Positions 9,209 to 46,906 of a stretch of 57,724 bases of DNA are shown here, one piece after another. Positions within the stretch are counted from its first letter, which is position 1; every line of letters begins with the position of its first letter. The stretch spans positions 1 to 57,724 of the forward strand of contig JAGVWJ010000015.1 in NCBI GenBank assembly GCA_018304385.1, given 5' to 3'. This stretch comes from Candidatus Micrarchaeota archaeon (GTDB taxonomy: Archaea > Micrarchaeota > Micrarchaeia > Anstonellales > Bilamarchaeaceae). Below the pieces are notes generated by a model. It saw only the letters and a list, made by a program, of their open reading frames with translations. It ran no database searches and was not told the DNA's origin. The position numbers and the translations under genes are program-made.

Positions 9209-9242
9209 GCTCACTGCCCACGGCCTAAGGCTCAAAGCCCAA
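9209..9242 (-). repeat. heptad-periodic GC-rich array R1
   Basis: Minus sense reads gggcttt gagcctt aggccgt gggcagt gagc. It starts 2 nt after stop TAG of 9243..9590. Confidence 0.7.
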
Positions 9243-9590
9243 CTACCTTTTTCTATTCTTGGCCTTTTTCTTCTGGGTAACTTTCTTAGTTTTTCTTTTT
9301 ACTTTTTTGGAGGCTTTCGTCACACTTACGTTCTTAGTCATCTCTGCAATGTCTTGGATTGTTAATTTTGCCTGACTTTTTATTATACCAATATAAGCCT
9401 TAGATGTTTTCTCCTCGTCGCCACCTAATTCAATTGCGGTTTTTTCTGTTTTTATTGATGCACAACGTTTGCAAGCTGCAAGTTCTTCACCATCACGCAC
9501 TACAACATCATGTACTTTACCAACATTACATATATCACAATATGCGCCAAGTTCTTCTTCTATTCTAAATTTTTTTATTCGTGTTTTCAT
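9243..9590 (-). CDS. zinc-ribbon protein with Lys-rich tail
   Basis: CDIC..17 aa..CKRC zinc ribbon resembles the N-terminus of the upstream aMBF1. C-terminal KKVKRKTKKVTQKKKAKNRKR. ATG overlaps the MBF1 stop (TAATG). Confidence 0.5.
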   Translation of the reverse strand: MKTRIKKFRIEEELGAYCDICNVGKVHDVVVRDGEELAACKRCASIKTEKTAIELGGDEEKTSKAYIGIIKSQAKLTIQDIAEMTKNVSVTKASKKVKRKTKKVTQKKKAKNRKR

Positions 9591-10045
9591 TATTTCGACC
9601 TCTTTTTCTCAGTTACAACAAAATCTGCAAGTGTTATACCTTTTGATGCGCTTACTGCTGCAGTTGGCCCAACCTCTTCAACAAGCTTTTCAATGAGCTT
9701 AACACCTAACTCTTTTTCAAGCTTATGTGCAACTTCAAGCGTTGGCTTCATATGACCGCGCTCAATATTCTCCAAATAACTTTCTTTTTCATTTATTCGC
9801 TCTGCAACTACTGGAATGGGTAAACCCATACCTTCACGCTTACTATGGATTAGCTTTGCGTAGTTTTCTACAATGTCTTCTACTTCTTGTGTTTTTGAGC
9901 TTATGGGTTTTTCTTTTTTCGGCTCATCTCTTAAATTATAGATTATTTTACCGTGCGAAGAACAATTTCTACAAGTGTTCATCTTTGCTCCTTCAATTAG
10001 TATAATGGCTACTGATTCGCCTCTGCCGCATATCTCACAATCCAT
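9590..10045 (-). CDS. mbf1: archaeal multiprotein bridging factor 1 (Zn-ribbon + Cro/C1-type HTH)
   Basis: N-terminal CEICG..CRNC ribbon followed by an HTH region (LPIPVVAERINEKESYLENIERGHMKPTLEVAHKLEKELGVKL). Confidence 0.8.
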   Translation of the reverse strand: MDCEICGRGESVAIILIEGAKMNTCRNCSSHGKIIYNLRDEPKKEKPISSKTQEVEDIVENYAKLIHSKREGMGLPIPVVAERINEKESYLENIERGHMKPTLEVAHKLEKELGVKLIEKLVEEVGPTAAVSASKGITLADFVVTEKKRSK

Positions 10046-10076
10046 AAGCTAACCATGAAAGGAAGTATTTTAATTT

Positions 10077-11054
10077 TTATTGAAGTGCTGATCTAGTAAA
10101 CTCTCTAATCAAACTAGCTGTCTCAATAGGTGCTTCCAAAGGAGGAACATGTGCTACACCAGGCAATCGTACAACATGTTCGCAATGCGGCATAATTCTA
10201 GCTAATGGCAATACTTTATCATGTACGATTAACCAATCGAGCTCGCCAGTTATTAGCATTACTGGAACATCAACCTGATCTAGCATAAGCCCATCGGCAC
10301 TTTCTCTTAGCATGGCCCTTAGCGCCAGTGCCCTTGTTTTTTTATCTGTTGCAAGTACCTGTTGCATAAATCTACTGAAAGCAAGATCATCATCGTGTCC
10401 ATTCTTCGCAAGATCCGCCATGGAAGCTATTCTTTTTATACTAGCTATCGCAATCCTGTTCCCAGCCAAGGCATGTGTTGCAAAATTAGTAATAGGATTA
10501 TACTCCAAAAATGAAAGAAGGGCTTTTATTGCAAGCTCTACTGACACGGAGTTACCGAAAGACCATAACTCGAGCGGACTTGAAAGTGCAGGACAAATAA
10601 ATACTATTGCCTCTACCTGATCTCTGAATGCATGGTAAAACTTTACAGCAGATATACCCCACATAGAATGCGCTACAAGAACTGCTTTTTTCACACCTTC
10701 CTCGTCCATAACTGCTTTCAGATCATGCGCAAGATCTGAAAGATATGAATCTACACTACTAGTTCCAAGTGCAGATCTCCAATGACCTCGATTCTCCATT
10801 GTTATGATATCATTTTCTGCATTCAGTGCTGGAATTATTGGGATAAATGCTGCTGGAGAACATGTCCAACCAGCTAATAATGCAAAAACTTTTTTTGCAG
10901 GCTGTGATTTTGCTTCTCTGTATCGATATCTTATTCTTGCGCCTTTAACGCTATCAACATAGCGATCTAAATGTTCTTCAAACAAAACCTCATGTCTAAT
11001 CCTTTTAGAAGCAGTTGATGCATATCGTCCTAAGATAGTGCTAAGTACTACCAT
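10077..11054 (-). CDS. alpha/beta-fold hydrolase
   Basis: Nucleophile elbow VLVAHSMWG, late acidic residue and GVAHVPPLE histidine. Length and order fit the alpha/beta hydrolase fold. Confidence 0.65.
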   Translation of the reverse strand: MVVLSTILGRYASTASKRIRHEVLFEEHLDRYVDSVKGARIRYRYREAKSQPAKKVFALLAGWTCSPAAFIPIIPALNAENDIITMENRGHWRSALGTSSVDSYLSDLAHDLKAVMDEEGVKKAVLVAHSMWGISAVKFYHAFRDQVEAIVFICPALSSPLELWSFGNSVSVELAIKALLSFLEYNPITNFATHALAGNRIAIASIKRIASMADLAKNGHDDDLAFSRFMQQVLATDKKTRALALRAMLRESADGLMLDQVDVPVMLITGELDWLIVHDKVLPLARIMPHCEHVVRLPGVAHVPPLEAPIETASLIREFTRSALQ

Positions 11055-11152
11055 TGATAATTATTTATTATAAAACATTTTTATATCTGCGTTAGGTGCA
11101 AGCCTAAAATAAGGCAAAGATATTTAATTGCGCTCTTCGATAATGGTTTATG

Positions 11153-11185
11153 ATTTGAATTTGTGGCAAAAAAACAAATTCAAAT
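11153..11185. promoter_or_regulatory. 12-bp perfect inverted repeat upstream of the S2P protease gene
   Basis: atttgaatttgt-N9-acaaattcaaat ends 26 nt before ATG 11212. Confidence 0.35.
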
Positions 11186-11211
11186 ATCTCTAAATCACGG
11201 GTGATTTATCA

Positions 11212-12570
11212 ATGATTGTTTTACTTCTAATATTAGCTATAGCTTTTGGTATCTTTTATTCTATACTCACATTAAGTATATCTGGAATTTTCAAATTCTT
11301 CTTAGCTGCAATAGAGATGCTCCTAGTTGGACAATTTTTAATATGGAGATATAAACTTACTGGAGAGCATGGATTAATTTTATTAAAAAGTAAACGCGGG
11401 TTGGAACTAATAAATAAAATCGCTAAACACGAGCAAGTATGGAAATTTTTTAGTGATGCCGGCACAGTAGTTTCATATGGGTTGCTCAGTTTAGTGATCA
11501 CGAAAAAAAATGTTTCTATAAAGGGTTTTGTTAGTGGTATTGCCTTAATCTCAATTTTGTTTTTTGTTGTTGCGCCTTTTGTTTTACCATTTTTAGTTAG
11601 CGTAATTGGGATCAGCGTATTAGAACATGGTGCTGTTCAACAGGTTGGAGATACTAATATACTTGCAATTATATCCATAATTTTATTATACGCAGGTGGG
11701 TTCTTCACATTATTATTGGCAAGTATTATTGGATATGGTACTTTTATTCTATCTGCATTGCTCAGCACGCTGTTGCATGGCACGCAAGCAATTGCAAAAA
11801 CATCGCCAGGTGCTACATTTTTACTGCCTGGAGTGAATATTCCGTTTTGGGAGGGTATTGCAGCATTAGTTGTAATATTAATTGTGCACGAAGGCGCACA
11901 CGCTGTATTGGCAAGAATAGCAAGAATTCCAGTGCTTAGTTCTGGTGTTGTGCTATTTGGAATTCTACCAATAGGCGCATTTGTAGAACCTGATGAAGAA
12001 AAACTAAAAAAACTAGAACAAACAAAGCAAACGCGCGTACTCATAGCTGGATCAATGGCTAATTTGCTGACTTCAATAATTTTCTTTGTACTATTTATAG
12101 GATTGTTTTTTACTACTGCGCAATATCGTGAAGAAGGTTTACTAGTAACGAGTGGAATGGAAAAAAATACTGTTATTCATGCAGTTAATGGCCAGCAGAT
12201 AGATATTAAGAACTTTGAAAAACTAGATTTGCCAAAAAACAGCGAAGTAAAACTTGATACGAATAAAGGCGAGATTACAAGAAAAACAAACGAAGAGGGA
12301 AAATTAGGTATAACAATTAGACCGATAACACGAGATTCGATATTTGGTGTTTATAATTCCGGAGTATTGCAGTTTATCTACATGCTATTAGGTTTAACAT
12401 TCGCATTGAATTTTGTAATTGGTACAGTAAATCTTTTGCCCTTGCCATTTTTTGATGGCTATCGCACATTAGAAATAAACATACAGAATAAGCATATAGT
12501 AAAGAGTCTGATGGCAATAACACTTGCTGCATTCTTAGTTAATTTCTTGCCCTGGTTCTTTAGAGGATAG
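11212..12570 (+). CDS. site-2 protease family (M50) membrane metalloprotease with PDZ-like insert
   Basis: HEGAHAV (HExxH) in a TM segment, NLLPLPFFDGY (NxxPxxxxDG), multiple hydrophobic helices. Confidence 0.85.
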   Translation: MIVLLLILAIAFGIFYSILTLSISGIFKFFLAAIEMLLVGQFLIWRYKLTGEHGLILLKSKRGLELINKIAKHEQVWKFFSDAGTVVSYGLLSLVITKKNVSIKGFVSGIALISILFFVVAPFVLPFLVSVIGISVLEHGAVQQVGDTNILAIISIILLYAGGFFTLLLASIIGYGTFILSALLSTLLHGTQAIAKTSPGATFLLPGVNIPFWEGIAALVVILIVHEGAHAVLARIARIPVLSSGVVLFGILPIGAFVEPDEEKLKKLEQTKQTRVLIAGSMANLLTSIIFFVLFIGLFFTTAQYREEGLLVTSGMEKNTVIHAVNGQQIDIKNFEKLDLPKNSEVKLDTNKGEITRKTNEEGKLGITIRPITRDSIFGVYNSGVLQFIYMLLGLTFALNFVIGTVNLLPLPFFDGYRTLEINIQNKHIVKSLMAITLAAFLVNFLPWFFRG

Positions 12571-12601
12571 CTTTATAATATGTGTTGTGCACTATATTTT
12601 T

Positions 12602-13102
12602 ATGGGGGTATTGTTGCAGTTTCCAACTGAAAGAGTAAGACCTAGTTTGCTAACGCGCAGCCAAAGAAGATTACCTCCTGGCATTGGAAGAGAAGAACAC
12701 GAACATACGTTAAGATTTCTAAGAAGATTAGTAAAAGATGAGCTCAGAGATCAACTAATTGATTATACTAGAAATCAATTATTAATCGCAGGTGCTGGCA
12801 TACCTGTTTTTTATATAGAATACTATCATAGTTTAGGTGGAGACATAAAACCAGTTATACTAGCTGCAAAACAAAGAATTGCAGAGACTACTGATAAAGA
12901 GTATACAAGAAATTTAGTAAGAACATTATTGTTTATTGATAAATTATATCCTGAATCAGTTGATTGGCAAGGACTAGAAAGCCAAAGAGAAGAATTTAGA
13001 TTAGACCCATTGAGAGGCAGGGAATGTTATTCTTATTATACGCACGGATTGAGTACAGATCCGGATAGATTTGTAACTCCTAGAAACATAGCTGGAGTAT
13101 AA
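12602..13102 (+). CDS. hypothetical protein (Arg-rich N-terminus)
   Basis: ORF 12587..13102. ATG 12602 lies about 25 nt after ctttataata, suggesting a leaderless start. No family recognised. Confidence 0.4.
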   Translation: MGVLLQFPTERVRPSLLTRSQRRLPPGIGREEHEHTLRFLRRLVKDELRDQLIDYTRNQLLIAGAGIPVFYIEYYHSLGGDIKPVILAAKQRIAETTDKEYTRNLVRTLLFIDKLYPESVDWQGLESQREEFRLDPLRGRECYSYYTHGLSTDPDRFVTPRNIAGV

Positions 13103-13104
13103 AT

Positions 13105-13382
13105 TGCCGAGGGCGGGATTGACGGCTTTGCTGTCAAATTTTGTCCGACAGGACAAAGCTATCGAAACCGCGACCTCTCGATTTCTCAGAGTGTAAATAT
13201 CATTGTTCTTACGAACTCATCACTCATAGCAAGTATGAGTCGAGCACTCTAAGCCATTACTCCTTTCGCCCTTTTAGTTTCTTATGTCTAACTGACATAA
13301 AAAGGGCGAGCCCCAAAACATGGAGAACCAGTTTTTGGGCTTACCTTTTTTACTAAAAAGGTAAGGACTGAGCTACCCCGGC
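13105..13382 (-). tRNA. tRNA with CAT anticodon (elongator Met or Ile2) carrying three introns
   Basis: Acceptor GCCGGGG/CCTCGGC plus discriminator A. D stem GCTC/GAGT. Anticodon arm CTCGA-CTCATA..A-TCGAG, anticodon at 13235..13237. T arm GCGGT-TTCGA..AT-CCCGC. Inserts lie at about 13256..13364 (D loop), 13183..13233 (canonical 37/38) and 13120..13161 (T loop, about 58/59). G1:C72 argues against an initiator. Confidence 0.75.
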
Positions 13383-13390
13383 GATAAAAA

Positions 13391-14176
13391 CTAATACTTA
13401 AAAATTACGATAGCAGCATCATCTTCTTTTGGAACAAGAATGCCATTATCGATTACTTCTTCTTTTAGCTGCATTCGCTTTTTAATTTCTTCTGCAAGTG
13501 CTTCGCACATAGTTTTAATGTTCTTGCTTTCGAATATTCTCTCTAAATCTTCCTTTCCACTTGTATCAGTGACTATTCCTCCTTCTACCTTAACAAAAAG
13601 ATTATCAACAATACCATCACTAACTGCAAAAATAATCTCGCCTCTATTCAGTTTTCCGTTTCCAGTATCTATGCTAGTAATTAACGAGCCAATGCACTCA
13701 GCTACATAATAGCGACCTTTTATATAAGAAGCGAAACTACTGCTATCTCTGTCATCTTTTGTTATGCGAGTAATTTTATTCTTTGAAATTTTATAAATAT
13801 GAGAATCCCCTATATTAGCGTAATAATAACTTCCATCTTTCAGAATCAATGCAATACTAGCAGTTGTTCCTCCAGCTTGTACAGCATAATTTGCTTCGCT
13901 TATTGCATTTTCTAATAGTTCTTCTACCTTTTTCTTTCCAAAATTTTTTTCTGCATAATTCACAATTGTAATAAGCGCTGTTTCACTCGCTGTGCTTGCA
14001 TTTGGTTGACCACTAACGCCATCGAATACTCCGATTAATGTATACTCATCTTTTATAATCAATAGCGCGCTATCGTCGCATGAATGCTCTTTGCTTTTTT
14101 TAATATAAGCACTGCTAGTATCACTACATTTAATTTCTTCTGATTTTACACTACTGGCTAGAATTGAAAGATTCAT
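13391..14176 (-). CDS. PP2C-family (PPM/SpoIIE-like) Ser/Thr phosphatase
   Basis: GVFDGVSG, GGTTASIALI and VSDGIVDNL motifs appear in PPM order. Confidence 0.7.
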   Translation of the reverse strand: MNLSILASSVKSEEIKCSDTSSAYIKKSKEHSCDDSALLIIKDEYTLIGVFDGVSGQPNASTASETALITIVNYAEKNFGKKKVEELLENAISEANYAVQAGGTTASIALILKDGSYYYANIGDSHIYKISKNKITRITKDDRDSSSFASYIKGRYYVAECIGSLITSIDTGNGKLNRGEIIFAVSDGIVDNLFVKVEGGIVTDTSGKEDLERIFESKNIKTMCEALAEEIKKRMQLKEEVIDNGILVPKEDDAAIVIFKY

Positions 14177-14198
14177 TTATATCACAATAAAAATAAGA

Positions 14199-14404
14199 GA
14201 ATGAGGAGCGTAGTCTGTCTTCTGTATTAAGAGAGATTAGACTTAGCGGCGCAAAGGCCTTGCACGCTCATCGGAACTCAGGATGCCGTTTCAACTGTAA
14301 CCAGTATCGTTTCTGTTCATCCTTTCGTGCCTTAAACACTTGGTTCCTTTTCGTGGACAGAACTTCCTCACTGCATAAGCAGCGAACTCCCCTGCCCCTC
14401 ATTC
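14199..14404 (-). ncRNA. rnpB: RNase P RNA, apparently size-reduced
   Basis: Minus sense has a CR-I-like GAGGAAGUUCUGUCC (14355..14369) and a CR-V-like ACAGAAGACAGACUA (14211..14225). These pair as P4 (AAG-U-UCUGUC / GACAGA-CU) with the conserved bulged U. Terminal helix GAAUGAGGGGC/GCUCCUCAUUC. Short P3 hairpin GCUGC-UUAU-GCAGU. A TATA-like box lies about 25 nt upstream. Ends are approximate. Confidence 0.65.
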
Positions 14405-14425
14405 ACTATAAATGAGTAAGGAAGG

Positions 14426-14465: not shown

Positions 14466-14662
14466 GCCGCGGTAGCTCAGCTCGGGAGAGCACTCGAATT
14501 TCTATTTGATTTTTATTAATTAGAAATAGTGAAGCTGAAGACCGAGGTGTCGCTTGTTCAAAGGCCAACCAGGGGGAAGCGTCCCCCTAGTTTCCCTGGG
14601 ATTCCTAACCCCCTCCAAAACTGGAGACTGGAAACTGTTGACTGGAGTTCAGGCCCGCGGCA
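14466..14662 (+). tRNA. tRNA-Phe (GAA) with two introns
   Basis: Acceptor GCCGCGG/CCGCGGC plus A. D arm GCTC-AGCTCGGGA-GAGC. Removing 14497..14533 gives anticodon arm CTCGG-CTGAAGA-CCGAG (anticodon 14537..14539), so this intron sits at the non-canonical 30/31 position. T arm GCTTG-TTCAAA[14563..14648]T-CAGGC places an intron of about 86 nt near 59/60. Exons sum to 74 nt. Confidence 0.85.
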
Positions 14663-14672: not shown

Positions 14673-14936
14673 CTACTTATAAGCTTTTTCTCTTCTCTCT
14701 AATTCAAAAACGCGTATAATCCCGTTTGTTGTATCAATATAATAAGAAATTCTGTAATCACCTATTCTGATTCTATAACAATCGTTCATTCCGCCTAATT
14801 TTACAAAGTCGTATTCATCTGCTGGATAAGGATGAGTTTCCAAATGTAAAAAAAGATCCTGGAACCTCTTAAAGTATTTTTCATCTAAGTCTTCGTATTT
14901 TTTCTTTACTTTGTTAGTAAGGATTATGGTGTACAT
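14673..14936 (-). CDS. RelE/ParE-family toxin
   Basis: 87 aa. CYRIRIGDYRISYYID..IIRVFELERREKAY is typical of archaeal RelE. It lies 1 nt downstream of a small partner gene. Confidence 0.75.
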   Translation of the reverse strand: MYTIILTNKVKKKYEDLDEKYFKRFQDLFLHLETHPYPADEYDFVKLGGMNDCYRIRIGDYRISYYIDTTNGIIRVFELERREKAYK

Positions 14937-14937
14937 T

Positions 14938-19572: not shown

Positions 19573-19601
19573 CTACTGCCTTCGGCAGTGGGCAGTGAGC
19601 C
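19573..19601 (+). repeat. heptad-periodic GC-rich array R2 (with hairpin and T-run)
   Basis: ctgcctt cggcagt gggcagt gagcc starts 1 nt after the thermosome stop. ctgcc-ttc-ggcag can fold. It is followed by ctttttttctttttt, between convergent ths and glnA. Confidence 0.7.
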
Positions 19602-28411: not shown

Positions 28412-28438
28412 TTTAAAAAATAAAACGAGGTGGAAGAT

Positions 28439-28858
28439 ATGAAATCAGTAACAGTAGTTGCGGAAGATAGGGTTGGTTTATTAGCAGACATATCTTACAT
28501 TCTAGGAAAGTCTAGTATTAATATTGATGCTCTAAGTGTTGATGTTGTTGGAAAGAAGGCAATAATTGCATTAACTGTGAAAGATCCAAAACACGCTGGC
28601 TCAGTGCTAGAAAAAAATGGATTCGGAATAGCGGAAATGGATTCAATAGTAATAAAATTGCCTAATAAGCCGGGCGAGATAAACCGCATTGCAGATAGAT
28701 TAAATGAAGAGAAAGTAAGCATTGAGAATATGCACATATTGAGCACTGACATGAATGGTGGTGTGTTTGCGCTAAACGTTGATAAACCGCGTAAGGCTGT
28801 GCGCTTGCTGAATGAATTTGTCATTAGCCCAGAGAGTAATAACAATATGGGATATTGA
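28439..28858 (+). CDS. ACT-domain protein (two ACT repeats)
   Basis: VTVVAEDRVGLLADISYILGKSSINIDALSV and a second IVIKLPNKPGEINRIADRLNEEKVSIENM. Start at ATG 28439 after GAGGTGGA. Confidence 0.75.
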   Translation: MKSVTVVAEDRVGLLADISYILGKSSINIDALSVDVVGKKAIIALTVKDPKHAGSVLEKNGFGIAEMDSIVIKLPNKPGEINRIADRLNEEKVSIENMHILSTDMNGGVFALNVDKPRKAVRLLNEFVISPESNNNMGY

Positions 28859-28932
28859 CTACTGCAATCAGCATTGGGCCATCGGCAATGAGCAAACGTT
28901 TGACTCATGGCTGACGGCTGAATGCTCAAAGC
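28859..28932. repeat. heptad-periodic array R3: two inverted half-arrays
   Basis: ctgcaat cagcatt gggccat cggcaat gagcaaa | cgtt | then the reverse complement of gagcatt cagccgt cagccat gagtca. It begins 1 nt after the ACT gene stop. Confidence 0.7.
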
Positions 28933-28956
28933 ATCATACTGTTATGTGTGGTATTA

Positions 28957-28995
28957 CCTACATAGTGTAGGCGTGGGGGGCGCAAGCTCCCCACG
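28957..28995 (+). other. two adjacent GC-rich hairpins in an AT-rich spacer
   Basis: cctaca-tag-tgtagg (28957..28971) and cgtgggg-N10-ccccacg (28972..28995). Confidence 0.4.
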
Positions 28996-29054
28996 AAAAT
29001 ATTTCTAAGCCGTTAGCACTCATTTATAAACATTTATTAACATATAATAGAAAT

Positions 29055-29873
29055 ATGGAACTCGTTAGTAGAATTGCTAGAAAAGCTGAAGGGCATAAAA
29101 TTTATCTAAGGGCAAGGTGGCAACTTGGAAAAATTAAAAGCGAACCAGTTATGCTAGGTATTACACATAGTGACGAAATGCTGCCACATGTTAAGAGAAT
29201 ATTAAAATTTTTAAAAGACAGGGGCCGCACAAGATTAGGAATAGAATTACCTGAAAACTACATAGAAGAAAGTTTAAAAATAAGATTTTTTTCGCAGATT
29301 ACAGAATATGCCCAAAAACTAGGTTATTCCATAATTCCTTTAGTAGTTGCATTACACAATGATGAATTTAATACGAGAAGGGAGGGGAGTGGTAATGCAC
29401 TTGATATGCTATCAATTAACGATTGGGATAGCAACAAAGCGTCATTGCATGTAAGGCACGAATTAAAAGCAGTCCTCGCGCGTATAGCAATACTTGTGCA
29501 AGTAAAAGTAAGCGGTATTGAAACGATAAGGTATATGCCACCTGAGATTACTGCAGGTATTTTTACCGAGGAGATAGCACGAGACTTAAGTTCTGTTAGT
29601 GCACGTGATATTACACTTGCTGAAGCAAGACTTATGCGATGGTGCTCTTCTCTTCAATATGCGATTTATTTAATAGAAAATAAAAGTGTGGATGAAATAA
29701 AAGAAATTTTCAGAAGTGCAAATGAAGAACTTGATGCGTATATGGTAGCTACAATAAAAAGGGAACTACCTAATCTAGTCGTAATTGGAGACGGGCATGC
29801 AAGGGCAATTAACCATCAAATAGGCTATGCGCATGTTCAGATGTCTATTTCAAACTTAACCTGGAATATGTAA
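29055..29873 (+). CDS. hypothetical protein, possibly TraB/Tiki/ChaN-superfamily-like
   Basis: N-terminal LGITHSDE..RLGIELPENY and C-terminal VVIGDGHARAI resemble the GxxH..E..GxxH layout of TraB/Tiki-type proteins. Weak, motif level only. Confidence 0.4.
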   Translation: MELVSRIARKAEGHKIYLRARWQLGKIKSEPVMLGITHSDEMLPHVKRILKFLKDRGRTRLGIELPENYIEESLKIRFFSQITEYAQKLGYSIIPLVVALHNDEFNTRREGSGNALDMLSINDWDSNKASLHVRHELKAVLARIAILVQVKVSGIETIRYMPPEITAGIFTEEIARDLSSVSARDITLAEARLMRWCSSLQYAIYLIENKSVDEIKEIFRSANEELDAYMVATIKRELPNLVVIGDGHARAINHQIGYAHVQMSISNLTWNM

Positions 29874-29874: not shown

Positions 29875-30969
29875 CTACGTAATAATTTTTTCTATTTTTT
29901 TCATCTTTATTGCATCGTTTAGCTCGATTGCGATTCTTCTTCCAAAGCTTATTCCTTCGCCAAATAGATAATGAGAATAAGGTGTGAATCTCGTACCGGG
30001 CGAGCCTGGCATTCTAAATGAAACATCAAATGTTGTAAACTGCTCTTTACCATCTCGCTCTTCAATTGCGCCTTGCAATGCGAATGGCCCAATTATACCA
30101 GGTGCATATTCTTTTTGTACTGTTGCAACAAATTTCTCTGCCTGTGTAAAAACATCTTCTAATAGGCTTTCACGTACTGTGCATGCAACATGACCAACTT
30201 CAATATTGTTCGGTTCTCTGCTTTTAAGCGCTTCTAATTGAATATCAGCAGGCATTCTTAGATAACCATCCAATGTTGTTTGCCTGCGCATATCTATACC
30301 CAATAGCTCGAGTTCCTCGTGCAATGGAGAATAAAAGAAATTAAAATTAAAATGCGCGCCAATTACAAATTCTTCTATCTGCGCTTTTTTCAAATCAGCT
30401 TCTGTGATTTTGCCATTGGCTATTAGCTTTTGGCTTTTGGCTAGATATTCATCATAAGAACTTGCAACAAAAAATGCACGTTCATATTTGCGCTTTGCCT
30501 CATTCACCTTTATAACTGCCAATTGATCTATTTTTTCTGGTGTGCTTATTATGCAGGGCGCATTTATATTTGCTTTTTTTAATAAATCATACTGATTATT
30601 TTGCGCGTTTCGCTCTTCAGCACGCAATAGATGGCGATTACCAAAAATAGGAATATGAAAATTCTTTTCGATATTATCATAGCCAACATAAACTGCAAAG
30701 CTGCGATTTGGAACGAAAATTGCGTTGCGCTTTTTCAAATGAGAGATTACATTTGAATTAATCATCTCACTAAATTTATTTACTAGAACAACCTCATCAA
30801 CGCAGCCTACTGGCTTACCAGAACGCTTTCGCGTTTTATAATAAGATAGATATGTTTTTTCTCTACCGCGCTGCGCAACAACTAAATTAGCAATGCCTTC
30901 TTGCCTCGCGCCATTACAAACATCTAATGCAGAATGAGACCCTAATGTTGCGATTGTATATTTGACCAT
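29875..30969 (-). CDS. PurP-family ATP-grasp protein, paralog 2
   Basis: IATLGSHSALDVCNGARQEG and collinear similarity to 23344..24384. Confidence 0.8.
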   Translation of the reverse strand: MVKYTIATLGSHSALDVCNGARQEGIANLVVAQRGREKTYLSYYKTRKRSGKPVGCVDEVVLVNKFSEMINSNVISHLKKRNAIFVPNRSFAVYVGYDNIEKNFHIPIFGNRHLLRAEERNAQNNQYDLLKKANINAPCIISTPEKIDQLAVIKVNEAKRKYERAFFVASSYDEYLAKSQKLIANGKITEADLKKAQIEEFVIGAHFNFNFFYSPLHEELELLGIDMRRQTTLDGYLRMPADIQLEALKSREPNNIEVGHVACTVRESLLEDVFTQAEKFVATVQKEYAPGIIGPFALQGAIEERDGKEQFTTFDVSFRMPGSPGTRFTPYSHYLFGEGISFGRRIAIELNDAIKMKKIEKIIT

Positions 30970-31008
30970 GCTATATAATGAATAAAAAATAATAAAAAGA
31001 AATCGGAA

Positions 31009-31821
31009 TTAGAATAATGCAACATTAAGACTTGCATGCATAGTGTAAGCTGCGCCAACACCTTGCCTACTTTGAGCAAGAGCTGTACAATGTACCTCAT
31101 CGCGAGCTAACAGGCCAATGTATGCATTAGTAATTCTAAGAAAAGATCTGGTGTCTAATGTTTGCGGTACTCGCTCACCTATTGGAATTCCAGTTTTGGC
31201 ATCTGTGAGATACCAACCGCCACCGTCTGAAATATGGGTAATTAAATGTATATTTTCTGCTGCGATTAGTTCGTATCTATTATCGCCTAGATTAACAACG
31301 CTGAAATCTGGGTGTTCAACAACTAGTGCAGCATTTTCTAATCCCCTAAACCGTTGCGGAACTTTAAATAGTATAAAACAATTTACATCATCATAAGGAT
31401 CCTTGGAGTTAAAAACTACTTCCTCTCCAAAAGGCGTATCTGGCTTTTCGTAAATAATTAGCGTGCCTGTCCATGTCCATGTCAAACTATAATGCAACTG
31501 TTCTATAGTTTCTATATCTGCATTCATTAAAATCCTATCATGGACATCATTTGGAACAAGTATTTTGCCTTCTTTTTGCGCTAATGCTAAGGCTTCAAAC
31601 AAGTTCAACCTTTGATAAAAATGAATTGCCTGTAATGCTTGTTCTGGAGTCATTTCTCTAAGCATTTGTCTTCTTGCGCGTAAGCGTTCTAGTTCGCTGC
31701 CTTCTAGTTGTTGGCTTCTTACTTCGTGCTTTTCCTCTGGTTTAAATCTTCTGAATATATCGTTTGCGCGTAATCGTTGGCCCATTGCACATTGCTCAAG
31801 GCCCATTGCTAATCTTCTCAT
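31009..31821 (-). CDS. orphan family protein (paralog of 40798..41613)
   Basis: Shares RAND.F.RFKPE..HEVR..ELERLRARRQMLR.MTPEQ..FEALALA..EGK..VPNDV and TGTLI.YEK.D.PFGE.VV..VP.RFRG with the paralog. The 5' codons are built from heptad array R4. Confidence 0.6.
   Translation of the reverse strand: MRRLAMGLEQCAMGQRLRANDIFRRFKPEEKHEVRSQQLEGSELERLRARRQMLREMTPEQALQAIHFYQRLNLFEALALAQKEGKILVPNDVHDRILMNADIETIEQLHYSLTWTWTGTLIIYEKPDTPFGEEVVFNSKDPYDDVNCFILFKVPQRFRGLENAALVVEHPDFSVVNLGDNRYELIAAENIHLITHISDGGGWYLTDAKTGIPIGERVPQTLDTRSFLRITNAYIGLLARDEVHCTALAQSRQGVGAAYTMHASLNVALF
31777..31811 (-). repeat. heptad-periodic array R4 (inside 5' coding end)
   Basis: Minus sense reads tagcaat gggcctt gagcaat gtgcaat gggccaa, encoding LAMGLEQCAMGQ. 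Confidence 0.65.
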
Positions 31822-31852
31822 GTCATAAAATTAGTATCTATGTGTTTATAAC
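31822..31852 (-). promoter_or_regulatory. conserved leaderless promoter of the orphan family (copy 1)
   Basis: Minus sense ttataaacacatagatactaattttatgacATG versus attaaaaacacatatctactaattatatcacATG at 41614..41644. The TATA-like box is centred about 26-27 nt before the ATG. Confidence 0.5.
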
Positions 31853-32197
31853 TTTTCCTATAACGTGGTCTAGCATAGAAAAGTAAGCGCAAGTAATCTC
31901 TCTATTGGTTAGGTAAAAACCTTTTCATAAAAGTTTTATTAAAAGGGAAAGCTACGTGATTGTTTTGGTGATAAACATGCGTAACATAAAAAACATCGTA
32001 GCGGTTTATAATCTATCAATAAAGATGCTTGAGGTTCAAGACAATATGGGTAGATCTAGGCCTATTAATACTGATGAATTTGCACTATCGTTTGACTTTA
32101 AGCCAAAACTACCTAAAAATATAGAAGCAAAACAAACAGATTCTAGGTTTAGGTAGCCGGGCATACGTATTTATTCTCTTTTTTCTATTTTTTATTC

Positions 32198-39296: not shown

Positions 39297-39334
39297 GTGG
39301 CTCATTGCCCACTGCCAAAGGCTCACAGCAGCAG
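39297..39334 (-). repeat. heptad-periodic array R5 (relic of an orphan-family 5' end?)
   Basis: Plus strand gtggctcattgcccactgccaaaggctcacag aligns with R6 gtggctcactgcacactgcccactgcccaaggctcg. The minus-sense ATGAGC..frame stops after 8 codons. Confidence 0.65.
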
Positions 39335-40753: not shown

Positions 40754-40784
40754 GGTTACTGGGAACTGGTTGCTGGCAACTCGA
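40754..40784 (-). repeat. degenerate heptad-periodic tract R9
   Basis: ggttact gggaact ggttgct ggcaact lies just downstream of the 40798 gene stop. It resembles the antisense form (GCNCACT) only weakly. Confidence 0.35.
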
Positions 40785-40797: not shown

Positions 40798-41613
40798 TCA
40801 GTATACTGCTATAACCCCTCCGCCATAATACCAGTCATGGTGTTCCAATTCGCTTCTGAATGCGAAATCATAGTAGTCTCTACTAACCGGAATTATTCCT
40901 GCGCCATATTGCCCACCCCATAACTGTCCTGTATCTGCAGTTCTGGGAGATTTTTCTATCAAGCGGAGATTGTTTTCATCAGCTACTTCTAAGTTAAATC
41001 TATTAATCCCTACATTAATTAATTTGAAATCCTGCGCCCAAGGATCGCTAGCACTAGGTTTTTTGGGAAATGAACGCCATGTTCTAAGAACTCTAAAAAT
41101 TTCAAAATCAGGATAATTCACTAATAAAATACAATCCACCTTACCCCTGAATCGCTCCGGAACTGTAAAGGAAATGGAATAATAGAATTCACCGTGTTTC
41201 CAATTTGCTACAACCTGTTCTCCAAAGGGTTGATCTTGTTTTTCATAAACAATCAAAGTACCTGTTCGGACACCAAGTCTGCAAACTTGTTGCAGGTATT
41301 TCTCATCCCTCTTTTGTTTTAGGATTGTGTGGAGAACATCATTCGGAACAATGAGTTTTCCTTCTCTTTTGGCTAAAGCAAGTGCTTCGAAAAAATTTAA
41401 ATCTCTATAAAATTCTATCACTTGCAATACCTGTTCTGGTGTCATATCTCTTAGCATTTGTCTTCTTGCGCGTAAGCGTTCTAGCTCTGTTCCTGTAACT
41501 TCTAGTTCTCTTACTTCGTGCGTTGGTTCTGGTTTGAATCTTTTGAACTGATCGTTTGCGCGTAAAGCGTGGCTCACTGCACACTGCCCACTGCCCAAGG
41601 CTCGTTTTCTCAT
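40798..41613 (-). CDS. orphan family protein (paralog of 31009..31821)
   Basis: See 31009..31821. It contains a 32-nt run (41453..41484) and a 15-nt run (41551..41565) identical to the paralog. Confidence 0.6.
   Translation of the reverse strand: MRKRALGSGQCAVSHALRANDQFKRFKPEPTHEVRELEVTGTELERLRARRQMLRDMTPEQVLQVIEFYRDLNFFEALALAKREGKLIVPNDVLHTILKQKRDEKYLQQVCRLGVRTGTLIVYEKQDQPFGEQVVANWKHGEFYYSISFTVPERFRGKVDCILLVNYPDFEIFRVLRTWRSFPKKPSASDPWAQDFKLINVGINRFNLEVADENNLRLIEKSPRTADTGQLWGGQYGAGIIPVSRDYYDFAFRSELEHHDWYYGGGVIAVY
41569..41604 (-). repeat. heptad-periodic array R6 (inside 5' coding end)
   Basis: Minus sense reads gagcctt gggcagt gggcagt gtgcagt gagccac, encoding ALGSGQCAVSH. Confidence 0.7.
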
Positions 41614-41661: not shown

Positions 41662-44103
41662 TTATAGTGCTTTGTTCTCCCCATTTTCTTTATGCACAAC
41701 TGCAAAGCTAGCTACTTTTTCTTTTGATTCATCTAATTTGATTACACGAACACCTTGTGTATTTCTTCCAATAACTGAGATATCTTTTACTGGAACACGA
41801 ATTGCCTGCCCCCCAGTAGTCATGAGAATAATTTCATCATTATCCTCCACTGCATGTACTGCAACAACATTGCCATTACGACCTTCTGTTTTAATATTAA
41901 TTACACCGCTTCCGCCACGACCTTGCGGACGATACTCATCTATATGCGTTCTCTTTCCATATCCATTTTCTGTAATTGTTAATATTGTTGGCTTTTTACA
42001 AATCGCTAAACTAATTACTTCATCTTTTTCATCCATGCGAATACCGATTACACCTTGGCCTGTTCTACCTAGCTCGCGTGTTTCTTCTTCGCTAAAGCGT
42101 ATTGCCTGACCAAATTTGGTTGCAATAAGCACTGTTTGCTTGCCATCTGTTTTCGCAACATCAACCAGCTGATCTTTATCCTTAAGCGTAATAGCAATTA
42201 CACCATTTTTTCTAGGATTGTTAAAGTTTGATAAACTCGTGCGTTTAACTATTCCGTTTTTTGTAGCCATGACTAAGAATTCATCCTCTTTGAACTCTGG
42301 TACGCTTATCCAAGATGTGATCTTCTCTTCCTTTAGATCAAGCAGGTTAACAATTGTCTTGCCTGTTGCATACCTGCCTGCCTCTGGAATCTGATATGCC
42401 TTAAGCCAGAATACGCGTCCGTAATCAGTAAAGAACAGCATGTGATTATGATTCTTAGTAACAACCAGATCATTAACAAAATCTTCCTCTTTGGTTTCTG
42501 CACCAATCACTCCCTTTCCACCGCGGTGTTGCGCGTGGTATTCATTTAATGAAATACGTTTGATATAGCCACGTTGCGTGATAATAACTACTACTTCATC
42601 ATTTGGTATCAGCTCTTCAATTGTTATTTCGTTTTCAATATCTAATATTGCTGTGCGTCTTGCATCGCCATATTTTTGTTTTATTTCAAGTAGCTCGTCC
42701 TTAATTATTTTTAATATCTTATTAATATCTGCGAGAACTTCCTTAAGCCATACAATTGTTTTTTGCAATTCCTTATGCTCATCTTCTATTTTCTGGCGCT
42801 CTAATGCAATCAATCTTTGCAGTTTCATATCTAATATTGCGTTTGCTTGTTTTTCGCTTAATGTATATTTAGCAATTAATCCTGCACGCGCTTCAGCTAC
42901 ATCCTTGCTTGCTTTTAAGAATGTGACAATACTATCTATTTGACCTAATGCCTTAAGCAACCCTTCCAGTATATGCGAACGTTCTTCTGCAATTTTTAAT
43001 TCAAATATGCTTCGCTTTCGCACAATCTCTTTTCTAAATTCTATGAATTCAGTTATCATACTCTGTAAGCCTAATACCTTTGGCTCTTTTCCAACTAAAA
43101 CAAGATTAATTATACCAAATGTACTTTCCAAAGGTGTGTGCGCATAAAGTTGGTTTAGCACCACTTCAGGATTTGCATCGCGCGACAGTTCGATTACTAC
43201 TTCAATTCCTTCGCGATCACTGCGATCATGTACGCCCCGCACGCCCTCAATGCGCTTATCACGAACTGCATTTGCTATTGCCTCGATTATTGTGGTTTTT
43301 ATTACCTGGTATGGAATTTCTCTTATGATTATTGCATGTCTCTTGGTGTCTGTTTCGCATTTTCCGCGAATCTTTATTATTCCACGGCCAGTTTTATATG
43401 CAGCATAAATGCCCGCGCGCCCAACGATCTCACCACCAGTTGGAAAATCTGGACCTTTAACAATACTAAATAGCTGCTCTTCACTTGCGCCATCTATTAC
43501 GGCAATTAATCCATCAACAATTTCGTTTAGATTATGTGGCGGCATATTAGTTGCCATACCAACTGCAATGCCTGAGCTTCCGTTTATTAAGAGATTTGGC
43601 ACCTTACTTGGAAGCACAACTGGCTCTTTTAGCGTTCCGTCAAAATTTGGTGTAAAATCAACTGTTTCTTTATCAATATCCTGGAGCATTTCTTCTGCAA
43701 TTTTCATTAGCCTGCATTCTGTATATCGCATTGCTGCTGCATTGTCTGCATCGATTGACCCAAAATTTCCTTGTCCATCCACAAGCATATAACGCAATGA
43801 AAATGATTGGGCCATCCTAACAAGTGAATCATAAACTGCCTGATCCCCATGTGGATGATATTTACCTAGAATTTCACCGACTATTCTTGCGCATTTTTTA
43901 AATGGTTTATCGTGATAGTTCGCAAGCTCTTTCATTGCAAAAAGAATTCTTCTATGCACTGGCTTTAATCCATCTCGCAGATCAGGTATTGCTCGCCCAA
44001 CGATTACGCTCATTGCATAGTCAAGATAGCTTTCTTTTAGGTCTTGTTCGATTGTTCTTTCAACGATTGTTTCTGGCATAGATACACCTAAATAAGTAGT
44101 CAT
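41662..44103 (-). CDS. gyrA: DNA gyrase subunit A
   Basis: [23 protein letters not shown], the catalytic Tyr region (AAMRYTE) and a C-terminal beta-pinwheel over the full length. Alternative start at ATG 44079. Confidence 0.97.
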
Positions 44104-44168
44104 TCCATATTCATAAAATTGATAATATTATTATGCAAAAAAGGGCTTAAAAGGGTATGTGTTTGATG

Positions 44169-44204
44169 CCTGCAATGAGCCTTGAGCAATGGGCAGTGAG
44201 CAAG
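44169..44204 (+). repeat. heptad-periodic array R7
   Basis: ctgcaat gagcctt gagcaat gggcagt gagcaag closely resembles the 5' end of 31009..31821 in sense orientation. It abuts the stop of 44206..44880 on the opposite strand. Confidence 0.7.
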
Positions 44205-44205
44205 A

Positions 44206-44880
44206 CTAAACCCGCTTAAACACCAAACCATACATATCATGATTATCATCAATCTTTTCTATGACCAAATCTACAAAAACAAGACCAGTAGAACGAAAGA
44301 TGCGAATAAGTTCATCGAGCCCATTAAGCTTGGTTTTACCCACTGTATTCGCAATCATTTTCTTAACATCTCTTGGCATATGCTTGCTTCCATTAATTAA
44401 AAGAGGAAATTCCTCTAGTGATATGAGCGTACCTTCTGGAACCAAAACTCTTCGAAATTCTTGCGCCACTCTTTCTTTATCAGTAAACCAGTGGAATGTA
44501 TAGGAACAAAAAACCGTGCCTATTGTTGCGCTAGCCAATCGTACATCTTCGGCGTCAAATGTTGTTAATAATGTGCCACTATTTCTAAGTTTTATTCTTG
44601 CATGTGCTAGCATACCGTCTGAAAAATCATTCCCTATCAGCAATCGTGCATCAGCGCCAAACATGTCCAATAGCATCTTCAGTGCTTCACCAGTGCCGCA
44701 TGTTGGATCCAAAATCCGGCCATTGAAATAACTACGCAACTGGCGCATTATTTTTTGCATTGTCACGTAATGATTCGTTGCACGCATATGCTGATCGTAG
44801 TTTTTAGAAAAGTATTTGTCATAAAGTCTTTTGATGTTCTCTTGATCAGGGCTACAAACCCTTTTTCTTACCAAATGCAT
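44206..44880 (-). CDS. class I SAM-dependent methyltransferase
   Basis: ILDPTCGTGEALKML..GNDFSDGMLAHARIKL..VLVPEGTLISLEEF. Confidence 0.75.
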   Translation of the reverse strand: MHLVRKRVCSPDQENIKRLYDKYFSKNYDQHMRATNHYVTMQKIMRQLRSYFNGRILDPTCGTGEALKMLLDMFGADARLLIGNDFSDGMLAHARIKLRNSGTLLTTFDAEDVRLASATIGTVFCSYTFHWFTDKERVAQEFRRVLVPEGTLISLEEFPLLINGSKHMPRDVKKMIANTVGKTKLNGLDELIRIFRSTGLVFVDLVIEKIDDNHDMYGLVFKRV

Positions 44881-44928
44881 GTATAGATTATGTTTATTTA
44901 TGGATAATATAGTTTTTCATTAAAAAAC

Positions 44929-44975
44929 TTGACAAAATAAAAAAATATTTAAAGTTTTTTATTTAAAGTTAGAAT
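44929..44975 (+). promoter_or_regulatory. promoter block conserved with 436..479
   Basis: See 436..479. Confidence 0.4.
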
Positions 44976-45959
44976 ATGATTATAGATGAAAAAGACAAAA
45001 AGATTCTTTATTATCTTGATGAAGATGCATTTCAGCCATTTTCTGCAATAGCAAAGAAAACAAGATTATCAAAACAAGTAGTGGCATACAGAATAGAAGA
45101 ACTTAAACGAAAAGGAATTCTCATAAAAACATGCGCCATAGTAAATCTAGCCAAGCTAGGTTACGAATTCTTTAAATTTTATATAAAGTATGAAGCTATA
45201 ACAAAAGAAAAAGAAACAGAGGTACTAAGAAAATTAGATGCGCACCCTAGAGTAGGGTATATGTGTGTATGCGATGGGCGATTCGATCTTTTTATTGGTG
45301 TCTGGGCAACAGATATTCATGATTTATATTCAATAAGTAAAGAAATTTTCAATAGATATAAAACAAATTTCAAGGAAATAGTGGTATCTGCAGTGGAAGT
45401 TGCATTCAACTCAAAGAGGGGCTATCTTATCAATCTAGAAACCAAAGGAGAGGCACCGTTATTTGGGGGCAAGGTTGGTAAAATAGAATTGGATAATACG
45501 GATAAATCAATAATTCGCCTGCTTACAGAGGACGCGAGAATAAAATATGTTGATATCGCACAAAAAACTGGGATTACCCCTGCTGCAGTAGCATACCGTA
45601 TAAAAAATATGAAAAAGAACGGGATAATAGAAGGGGCAAGAATTGTTCTGGATAAATCAAAAATAGGATATTTGACATTTAAGGTGCTAATTAAGACCGG
45701 GCCAGTGGATGAAAAAGATGTTGGTAGGTTCATAAAATACGCTTCAGAAGATAAAAACATTGTAGACATTGATCTTACCCTTGGAGATTGGGATATTGAA
45801 TTAGACATAGAAGTAGAGAACCACGAGAAGTTTCATCAAATAATGCTCGAACTAAGAACAGCATTCCCAAATGTAATACATAGCTACGACAGTCTTTTGG
45901 TTTTTAGAGAGCATACTTACGATTATTTCCCGATTGGTAAGGAAACTAAAGGCATTTAA
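44976..45959 (+). CDS. Lrp/AsnC-like tandem winged-helix regulator (complete form)
   Basis: Two HTH modules (KKILYYLDEDAFQPFSAIAKKTRLSKQVVAYRIEELKRKGIL and KSIIRLLTEDARIKYVDIAQKTGITPAAVAYRIKNMKKNGII), each followed by an effector-like domain. Confidence 0.8.
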   Translation: MIIDEKDKKILYYLDEDAFQPFSAIAKKTRLSKQVVAYRIEELKRKGILIKTCAIVNLAKLGYEFFKFYIKYEAITKEKETEVLRKLDAHPRVGYMCVCDGRFDLFIGVWATDIHDLYSISKEIFNRYKTNFKEIVVSAVEVAFNSKRGYLINLETKGEAPLFGGKVGKIELDNTDKSIIRLLTEDARIKYVDIAQKTGITPAAVAYRIKNMKKNGIIEGARIVLDKSKIGYLTFKVLIKTGPVDEKDVGRFIKYASEDKNIVDIDLTLGDWDIELDIEVENHEKFHQIMLELRTAFPNVIHSYDSLLVFREHTYDYFPIGKETKGI

Positions 45960-45983
45960 AATAATTTACAATAAACTGATATC

Positions 45984-46892
45984 ATGAATATACTAGTAAC
46001 TGGTGGCGCAGGCTTCATTGGAAGTCACATTGCTGATAAACTAATCGAAAAAAGCGAAGATGTCACGATTATTGATAATCTCAGCAACGGCAATCTAAAA
46101 AATGTAAATAAAAAAGCGCGTTTTATTAAAAAGGATATAAATAACATTGCTGCTGGAGATTTAAAAAATATTGAAACTGTTTTTCATCTTGCTGCAGATC
46201 CTGAAGTAAGAATAAGCGCAGATAACCCTGAAAGTAGTTTTAAAAATAATGTAACTGCTACTTTTCGCTTATTAGAGGCATGTAGACAAGCAGACATTAA
46301 ACAGTTGGTGTTCACTTCTACATCAACAGTTTATGGTGATGCTATTGTCCCAACCCCAGAGGGATGTCCTTGCGAACCAATAAGCAATTATGGCGCAAGC
46401 AAACTAGCCTGTGAGGGGTATTGTGCAAGCTATGCTCATTCTTATGGTATAAAAACAACTGTTCTGCGCTATGCAAATATATTTGGAGAACGCTCTAACC
46501 ACGGGGTTATGTATGATTTTTTCCAAAAATTAAAAAAGAACGAAAAAGAACTGGAAATTCTTGGAAATGGAAAACAAGAGAAATCATATTTGCATGTTTC
46601 TGATTGTGTAAATGCGACATTGCTTGCGAGCGAAAAGCAAAATAAGATTTATGATGTCTTTAATGTTGGAAGCGATGATAAGTATAATGTTGATTATGTT
46701 GCGAAATTAGTTTGTAAATTGCTTAAGGTTAATCCTAAATTTAGATACACTGGAACTGAACGCGGTTGGGTTGGAGATGTTAAAATAATGCAGCTTTCAG
46801 TTAACAAACTGAAAAAATTAGGTTGGAAACAAAAAATTAGTTTTGAGGAAGGGGTTAAAAAATATATTAATTGGCTCAAGGCCCAAGGCTGA
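45984..46892 (+). CDS. NAD-dependent nucleotide-sugar epimerase/dehydratase (SDR)
   Basis: ILVTGGAGFIGSH, YGASK (YxxxK), extended-SDR length. Confidence 0.9.
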   Translation: MNILVTGGAGFIGSHIADKLIEKSEDVTIIDNLSNGNLKNVNKKARFIKKDINNIAAGDLKNIETVFHLAADPEVRISADNPESSFKNNVTATFRLLEACRQADIKQLVFTSTSTVYGDAIVPTPEGCPCEPISNYGASKLACEGYCASYAHSYGIKTTVLRYANIFGERSNHGVMYDFFQKLKKNEKELEILGNGKQEKSYLHVSDCVNATLLASEKQNKIYDVFNVGSDDKYNVDYVAKLVCKLLKVNPKFRYTGTERGWVGDVKIMQLSVNKLKKLGWKQKISFEEGVKKYINWLKAQG

Positions 46893-46906
46893 CGGCTCAC
46901 TGCTTC
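46872..46906 (-). repeat. heptad-periodic array R8 spanning two convergent stop codons
   Basis: Minus sense reads aagcagt gagccgt cagcctt gggcctt gagccaa. It covers the last codons and stops of the epimerase (46890..46892) and the nitrilase-like gene (46897..46899). Confidence 0.7.

Follow-up and report, generated by a model that had tools for sequence, protein, structure and literature searches.

We analyzed a 57,724-nucleotide (nt) stretch of DNA, hereafter the window, from a Candidatus Micrarchaeota archaeon (assembly GCA_018304385.1, contig JAGVWJ010000015.1, positions 1-57,724, forward strand), with a focus on the short, tandem heptamer arrays that are dispersed among its genes. The window has a GC content of 36.5%, is ~92% coding by longest-open reading frame (ORF) tiling, and carries genes for a group II chaperonin (thermosome), DNA gyrase A and B, FEN1, SRP54, primase, and PurP-type enzymes. 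The DNA comes from groundwater metagenomes of the Rifle type, and the nearest named homologs of the thermosome were from Candidatus Micrarchaeota throughout. A scan of the window for tRNA and tmRNA genes returned none. Comparisons were made with contigs from the same or related genomes (L005, L127, L134, L138, L140, L162, L163, L171, and L172), and those within the lineage rest on small samples.

Nine array arms were present at eight loci in the window, each consisting of 4-5 tandem heptamers. The unit reads GCYCANN on one strand (the C-form) and NNTGRGC on the opposite strand (the G-form). An earlier note on this DNA had listed eight clear arrays, R1 to R8, and all eight were found in the sequence where it had placed them, with R1, R2, R3, and R7 starting 0-2 nt past a stop codon, as it had described. 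R1 (9209..9242, G-form on the - strand) comprises five heptamers directly behind the TAG stop of a 115-amino acid (aa) ORF (9243-9590, -), with a T-rich stretch after the array. R2 (19573..19601, +) comprises four heptamers (CTACTGC CTTCGGC AGTGGGC AGTGAGC) directly behind the TAA stop of the thermosome gene, followed by T7CT6. R3 is an inverted pair: its left arm (28859..28893, +) places five G-form heptamers directly behind the TGA stop of an ACT-domain gene (28430-28858, +), and its right arm (28903..28932, -) is an inverted copy joined to the left arm by the palindromic spacer CAAACGTTTG. R2 and R3 share the initial CTACTGC, again as the note had read them. R7 (44169..44204, +), with four to five heptamers, lies 1 nt past the stop of a methyltransferase gene (44206-44880, -), and the five heptamers of R8 (46872..46906, -) extend over both stop codons of the convergent pair 45984-46892 (+) and 46897-47679 (-). 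Two arrays lie in the 5' ends of paralogous ORFs without a Pfam match: R4 (31777..31814, -) encodes codons 5-15 of orphan gene 1 (31009..31821, -; 270 aa), with the G-form in the mRNA, and R6 (41569..41606, -), within which two Logan contigs terminate, encodes codons 5-15 of orphan gene 2 (40798..41613, -; 271 aa), directly downstream of gyrA. The five heptamers of R5 (39297..39334, -) lie between a divergent subtilase gene (start 39256, -) and helix-turn-helix (HTH) gene (start 39466, +).

Using motif-free autocorrelation at lag 7, we detected nine period-7 regions in the window, compared to none at periods 8, 9, and 11 and one each at periods 10 and 12, i.e., an excess specific to a period of 7. 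The pattern (GC..A..) in at least four tandem copies occurred 8 times in the window, while 200 shuffles per order gave 0.005 occurrences under an order-1 Markov null and 0 under an order-3 Markov null. A position weight matrix (PWM) of the heptamer scored the nine arms at 28-40 bits (33.8 bits for R1) against a null maximum of 15, a comparison with some circularity, as these nine arms also served to train the PWM, and no further copy was found. The fixed positions of the PWM were G1 (94%), C2 (96%), and A5 (89%), with Y3 at 86% and C4 at 68%, and positions 6-7 were free. Array size was 3-5 units (28-37 nt). Approximately seven of the nine arms lay outside coding sequence in this ~92% coding window (binomial p = 7e-7). 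Together, these results bear out the 7-nt periodicity of non-codon type and the concentration at gene ends that the earlier note had described, and they show an excess over shuffled controls. Since the arrays were recovered in separate assemblies from ENA, JGI, NCBI, and Logan, they are not assembly artefacts.

We also asked whether the arrays are copies of one master element. The unit AGTGAGC was mostly distal (5 of 6 occurrences, p = 0.003). Conservation of unit order was only marginal, the observed value being reached in 25 of 500 shuffles, and the master-element idea was rejected on this ground. The R7 array was identical at 30 of 30 positions to the array at the 3' end of grpE in L005/L134; when the flanks of R7 and L005a were compared, no similarity was shared despite the identical arrays.

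We then examined how the arrays are placed relative to genes. In the window and the related loci, arrays started between -21 and +5 nt of the stop codon, and several of the lineage arrays themselves provided the stop codon. At 10 of 12 independent sites, the G-form was in sense (p = 0.04). Relative to the + strand of the window, arrays occurred in both orientations, which indicates that orientation tracks gene direction rather than a fixed DNA strand; provided that a single replichore spans the window, this speaks against an orientation linked to replication.

The same unit was also sought elsewhere, by scanning 185,579 genomes (one per species) with the pattern GCTCAYTGCCCAYTGCNNANNGC. At least 116 loci were recovered, against a chance expectation estimated at ~17 for the whole collection; the figures that follow refer to the matches listed. 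Arrays of the type (GCYCAYT)n were present in more than 10 bacterial phyla, the carriers including Acidobacteriota (many of them Pyrinomonadaceae), Chitinophagales, Flavobacteriales, Cytophagales, Chloroflexota, Planctomycetota, Verrucomicrobiota, cyanobacteria, Proteobacteria, Saccharibacteria, and others. Isolates and closed chromosomes were among them, and Flavobacterium subsaxonicum DSM 21790, Flavobacterium zepuense, and Algoriphagus kandeliae carry arrays. Bacterial arrays reached up to 39 units of GCYCACT or GCYCATT, with a mean of more than one array per 8-kb locus, and lay at a median distance of 7 nt from the upstream stop vs. 53 nt to the next start. Of 55 codirectional contexts, 42 had the G-form on the sense strand, and among arrays 0-30 nt past a stop, 23 had the G-form and 2 the C-form in sense (p = 2e-5). 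Split by GC content of the locus, this ratio was 8:0 below 50% and 15:2 above. The placement rule, by which arrays immediately follow the stop codon and have the G-rich strand in sense, is thus shown in two domains. In viral contigs, the pattern matched 4 times in 2.9 million, close to a rough chance estimate. One further contig with a bacterial-type (GCYCACT)5 array, L058 (CAXQOB010000064.1), is labeled Nitrosopumilus sp.; its GC content is 51%, it was probably binned wrongly into the Nitrosopumilus metagenome-assembled genome (MAG), and we therefore left it out of the archaeal count.

In addition to placement, we investigated whether the arrays have structure of their own; the earlier note had proposed 3'-end or terminator RNA elements as one candidate role. 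When compared to shuffles on both strands, the eight single arrays showed no excess folding stability (z from -0.9 to +1.1), and no covariation toward a common fold was visible across the array copies. The only strong hairpin was formed by the R3 inverted pair with its spacer, at -34 kcal/mol (z = -4.46). Inverted pairs were ordered G-form then C-form without exception, at R3, in L138, L140, and L163, and at five bacterial loci. As candidates for a hairpin-type intrinsic terminator, the single arrays had no stable stem and R3 had a stem without a T-run, a long T-run directly 3' of the array being present at R2 only. The palindrome that characterizes each repetitive extragenic palindromic (REP) element or bacterial interspersed mosaic element (BIME) was likewise not present in the single arrays, as judged by the same z values, and no REP-associated tyrosine transposase (RAYT; IS200/IS605-like) was seen in ~250 kb of lineage DNA, which is part of the genome. 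G-quadruplex potential was absent, with 0-3 GGG runs per array and no archaeal array containing four G-runs, and by stop-codon count only 1 of 14 arrays closed all three reading frames; these counts contradict the G-quadruplex and all-frame-stop readings in this lineage. Searching the window with Rfam 15 covariance models at gathering thresholds gave no match to a described family, and a permissive search (E up to 1) gave a chance-level match near R3 only. With no intrinsic structure, a single-stranded reading of the arrays is natural.

Turnover of the arrays is rapid. The strain contig L155 was 99.74% identical to the window over 12.7 kb, with a sole gap of 21 nt, equal to three units, in R8, and most of its substitutions fell within 70 nt around R8; the R8 position corresponds to a 100-N gap in the Rifle scaffold L153. 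At the thermosome site, a relative whose thermosome protein is 92% identical (L162) had three units, ACTCTGC CATAGGC AATATGC, compared to four in the window, with the T..GC positions retained and the remaining positions altered. No array was found at this site in relatives with 83% and 81% identical thermosome proteins. At the site behind the ACT-domain gene, three genomes (the window, L171, and L172) carried three different arrays: L172 reads GCTATGG GCAGTGA GCAATGG, and L171 reads GTTTTGG GTTCTGG GTCTTGA GTTTTGA, with GT replacing GC in every unit. This replacement points to a concerted change within one array. The flanking genes of L171 and L172 are 97-99% identical, while their arrays at this site are unrelated. 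Because arrays are not positionally conserved beyond close relatives, any role that they have is dispensable.

Gene content also varied. At position 12568 lies a population structural variant, in which L003 (1-650) carries a third orphan-family gene in place of the M50 peptidase gene of the window; the junction is the peptidase stop codon, and contig L002 begins exactly there. Orphan gene 1, together with its promoter and a 39-nt 3' flank (~30970-31860), is absent from L171 and L172, which have 33 nt instead, with no target-site duplication evident. A 272-aa ORF (29055-29873) is separately absent from the same two contigs; as a candidate member of the orphan family, it proved unrelated on comparison.

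The orphan genes that contain R4 and R6 belong to an expanding, lineage-specific family of ~49 clusters. The window and L127 have two copies apiece, L003 and L005 have a single copy each, and the MAG GCA_023247345.1 has tandem sets of five and two. The tandem sets lie at L165 8001-12176 and L166 7014-8674, where stop and start codons overlap. Profile searches of the orphan proteins against Pfam, PHROGs, and PDB sequences returned no match. AlphaFold 2 (AF2) models were confident, with predicted local distance difference test (pLDDT) scores of 79 and 72, except at a disordered N terminus that includes the array-coded residues, and Foldseek found no significant match to them in PDB or BFVD. The best E values were 0.05-0.09 with template modeling (TM) scores up to 0.26, both weak, and the top matches were nearly all oligonucleotide/oligosaccharide-binding (OB)-fold DNA/RNA binders (HIN, RPA, MCM10, AspRS-N, CST, and Teb1).

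In an alignment of four orphan paralogs (~70% DNA identity), 17 of the 19 heptamer-defining columns were invariant vs. 2 of 14 others (p = 3e-5). The invariant columns occupy all three codon positions, and the encoded residues change radically; for instance, CTT/AGT/CAT/CGT encode L/S/H/R with the third-position T constant. Constraint or homogenization therefore acts on the nucleotides. One orphan subfamily carries an inherited coding array at its 5' end, and most orphan paralogs in GCA_023247345.1 have no array. Since the flanks of the dispersed arrays also share nothing with the orphan genes, the dispersed arrays are not decayed orphan 5' ends, as the earlier note had offered among its options. 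Two composite arrays, (RGCNNNA)n followed by (CCCTAAA)n, were seen at L165 14684-14783 and L164 5436-5560, where they fall within 5' coding sequence, of an unrelated gene in one case and of an orphan paralog in the other; (CCCTAAA)n corresponds to the plant-type telomere repeat TTTAGGG read on the complementary strand. A low-complexity insert of 40-50 residues (EERSSPDCSDRTMGILSPRATSLLGDR...) occupies differing positions in the orphan homologs P0004, P0017, P0025, and P0046, and resembles the in-frame translation of a further repeated DNA element.

We next compared the arrays with repeats that have been described in prokaryotes. Heptanucleotide repeats are reported to be the commonest class of long simple-sequence repeats (SSRs) in prokaryotes, with polymerase slippage proposed as their origin (Mrazek 2007, in the summaries given by PMC4679880 and PMC4692102). 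Among them, the G-rich heptamer repeats of Xanthomonas (GGGAATC / GGGANTN) and Nostoc (GGGGAYT) are transcribed and were suggested to form G-quadruplexes, with no role established (Rehm et al. 2015, PMC4692102). Those repeats share with the arrays described here 7-nt tandem units, fixed and free positions, inverted pairs, and variation between close relatives; they have a modal 4 units, are ~90% intergenic, lie ~28 nt from the upstream ORF, and have the G-rich strand as the coding strand (PMC4692102). Unlike them, the present arrays are NNTGRGC rather than GGGANTN, have an archaeal host and no capacity for G-quadruplexes, and in some cases lie within the 5' coding region of a gene family. G-quadruplex potential is a property of the subclass of Rehm et al., not of heptamer SSRs generally. 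The short tandemly repeated repetitive (STRR) sequences of Calothrix and Anabaena are, in the account of PMC4692102, tandem heptanucleotides dispersed in noncoding DNA whose function is unexplained; the main family here has another unit, and its arrays are short and heterogeneous, whereas STRR arrays are long and homogeneous. TAACTGA direct repeats in marine Beggiatoaceae, cyanobacteria, and Bacteroidetes (PMC4679880) and the heptamer repeats near Nostoc start codons (bioRxiv 10.1101/2022.06.06.494920) are alike in having 2-6 heptamers, being mostly intergenic, and having one unit common to distant phyla, and their proposed reader is a single-strand-binding (S1/Csp/Csr) protein. These repeats sit just upstream of start codons, whereas the present arrays sit just downstream of stops, except in the orphan genes and R5. 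Enterobacterial REP/BIME elements are GC-rich, extragenic, ~35 nt long, single or in inverted pairs, often no more than 15 nt from a stop, and affect translation and mRNA decay (PMC12306157). The arrays resemble them as dispersed, GC-rich elements of ~35 nt, single or inverted-paired, near stop codons; in contrast, each REP is an imperfect palindrome without 7-nt periodicity, and no RAYT-type transposase was seen in any array locus.

With their 7-nt tandem units, noncoding bias and strand rule, fixed and free positions, and variation among relatives, the arrays are very probably heptanucleotide SSRs of the prokaryotic intergenic class. The earlier note had not recognized the repeat as a known archaeal class, a statement that needs qualifying: the arrays match the bacterial intergenic heptanucleotide repeats feature for feature (PMC4692102, PMC4679880), while our literature search with unit sequences and for heptamers in DPANN/Micrarchaeota found no report of such repeats in archaea and no description of the ARTGRGC unit (GCYCAYT / ARTGRGC). 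They are thus an archaeal (DPANN) example of heptanucleotide repeats, of which we found no earlier report, with a unit that recurs in more than 10 bacterial phyla among the matches listed and for which we found no earlier description.

How might such arrays come to lie behind stop codons in one orientation? Our best explanation of the whole, which we hold tentatively and at somewhat less than even confidence, is that heptamer arrays made by slippage are kept as strand-specific, single-stranded platforms in 3' untranslated regions (3'-UTRs). Arrays would be made and remade in place, unit by unit, via replication slippage or gene conversion between copies. They persist almost only in the first bases behind a stop, oriented so that the mRNA contains the G-rich strand; the other form is the [G-form, C-form] inverted pair, which gives a hairpin. 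Once transcribed, an array may act as an unstructured, single-stranded platform, each 7-nt unit offering one site that roughly matches the footprint of a single OB-fold or cold-shock-type domain. A single-strand-binding factor, with four or five copies bound, could then mark or protect the 3' end of the transcript. Leaderless orphan mRNAs would present an equivalent platform at their 5' end. One cold-shock domain is known to bind one heptanucleotide, with the consensus GTCTTTG/T (PMC1904285). Position-specific constraint, a preferred length, a strand rule in two domains, and the lack of structure favor a single-stranded platform with one site per unit. The step from these sequence patterns to a platform function at transcript ends, taken on its own, is possible and rather doubtful.

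About equal weight attaches to the main rival of this function, namely that the arrays are purely mutational or selfish repeats without function, slippage-prone heptamers tolerated only behind the stops of a 92%-coding genome and with the C-rich tract kept out of the mRNA. This is what the very fast turnover, the presence/absence polymorphism, and the related Micrarchaeota without arrays suggest, as do the bacterial arrays, which are long runs of identical units with C/T variants, as slippage and point mutation predict. No gene family recurs beside the arrays: in an all-against-all BLASTP of the flanking ORFs at the 116 bacterial loci listed, only translations of the repeat clustered. Heptanucleotide repeats are, moreover, reported to be the most abundant long-SSR class in prokaryotes and have been credited to polymerase slippage (Mrazek 2007, in the summaries of PMC4679880 and PMC4692102). 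However, random decay should strike all seven positions, and the same three stay fixed in all arrays, in paralogs of ~70% identity, and across phyla; nor does purely mutational origin predict a modal 4-5 units and one heptamer in so many listed bacterial phyla plus an archaeon. In this rival, the presumed counter-selection would act because a C-rich, G-poor, unstructured mRNA tract would be a loading site for Rho in bacteria, or would provide repeated CA cleavage sites for the archaeal termination and cleavage factor.

The remaining explanations appear less probable still. Recombination sites delimiting exchangeable gene cassettes, which the earlier note had also put forward, are unlikely. They would account for contig L004, which is 99.85% identical to the window as far as the last base of R2 (19600) and unrelated past that point, for the position of R8 within the 70-nt patch that holds most differences between 99.7%-identical strains, for the swapped DNA directly behind the ACT-gene stop of L171 and L172, and for the presence or absence of array-bearing orphan genes between related genomes. 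The support is weak and comes from a small sample: only few junctions were observed, and contig ends are weak evidence because metagenome contigs break at any repeat. What does not fit is that arrays coincide neither with the 12568 junction nor with either end of the orphan-1 insertion, that no recombinase or transposase lies nearby, and that the strand rule relative to genes is left unexplained. A role as hairpin terminators or structured RNA elements at 3' ends is very unlikely, even though the hairpin at R3, the [G-form, C-form] pairs in L138, L140, L163, and the bacterial loci, and the T-run after R2 are in its favor, because the single arrays fold no better than shuffles, most arrays are unpaired, and Rfam holds no match. 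In addition, archaeal termination is not known to require hairpins. We give least credence to a special sequence property, be it G-quadruplexes, fail-safe stops in three frames, or decay from orphan 5' ends. The G-form unit AGTGAGC does contain TGA, bacterial (AGTGGGC)n with at least four units could form a G-quadruplex, and orphan genes do begin with arrays, but the G-run and stop counts, the lack of a common flank, and the array-free paralogs given above speak against all three.

Several observations count against the platform explanation as well. R7 and L140a are oppositely oriented, with the C-form in sense, and the orientation bias could reflect counter-selection of the C-rich strand in mRNA rather than a positive function. 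No arrays were found in 21 kb of L160 (thermosome 83% identical), nor in L173 and L174. The wholesale array swap between 97-99%-identical strains looks more like insertion or conversion than gradual slippage. No cold-shock-domain gene lies within the window. Finally, the gene calls at related loci are crude longest-ORF calls, and the bacterial loci, at least 116, were selected through the pattern itself.

A more far-reaching version of the platform idea is that (NNTGRGC)n is a cross-domain, strand-specific gene-end signal, read as a single strand with one unit per OB-fold-type domain, and that its reader in Micrarchaeota is the expanding and variable orphan family, whose beta-domain bears a weak resemblance to an OB fold; we regard this as improbable. 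If it were true, leaderless orphan mRNAs starting with the array would permit autoregulation, and the prokaryotic heptanucleotide repeats (STRRs) would gain a molecular reader and a function, which they have lacked since the cyanobacterial STRRs became known. The placement rule of the Xanthomonas and Nostoc repeats is now seen across domains, including in arrays incapable of forming G-quadruplexes, which removes the sole structural explanation proposed so far. Because cultivable bacterial carriers exist, the rule is open to ordinary experiment. In the annotation of these MAGs, the arrays account for contig breaks, for variable C and N termini, and for spurious short ORFs where genes end.

A second type of heptamer was also present. 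Four units of (ACTGGNN) lie at 14620..14647 (+), 25 nt past the stop of a gene for a ParE-type toxin (14673-14936, -) and outside the GCYCANN family; they read ACTGGNN on the + strand and NNCCAGT on the - strand, and include CTCCAGT and CAACAGT. The NNCCAGT units resemble what we take to be cyanobacterial STRR units, CCCCAGT and CAACAGT, the resemblance being presumptive. The weak ninth copy of the earlier note, R9 (40754..40784, +), lies 13 nt past the stop of orphan gene 2 and is indeed 7-periodic; its unit (CTGGNNA) is of this second type and is shared with the array at 14620-14647, which the note had not included. A further weak copy near threshold (30407-30441) lies inside an ORF.

Two other dispersed elements were observed near the arrays. 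Just past R3, a GC-rich element of 72 nt (28933-29004, +; CTGTTATGTGTGGTA...GGGGGGCGCAAGCTCCCC...AAAATATTT) has counterparts at L171 8614-8706, L172 5736-5828, and, in part, L173 1175-1250. The element is ~92% conserved, while the adjoining intergenic DNA is not alignable. Its fold comprises three hairpins (-31.8 kcal/mol) and includes one compensatory pair, and Rfam has nothing that matches it; a small RNA gene that has escaped annotation is its probable identity. The second element, of ~110 nt, starts with AAACGACCGACG and a hairpin and ends near CGACGRCTTTGTAAGAATGAGA. It occurs in the window at 9076-9179 (-), in L138 at ~7495 (-), in L140 at 9762 (-) and 10610 (+), in L171 at 8483/8540, and in L172 at 5657/5717. 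A promoter-like TATAAG(T/A)A box lies ~10 nt upstream of it, and in four cases a heptamer array, which in the window is R1, lies directly upstream of the box.

Between the PP2C phosphatase and SRP54 genes of the window, the ParE-type toxin gene (14673-14936, -) is accompanied by a small upstream ORF of 62 aa, with which it probably forms a toxin-antitoxin pair.

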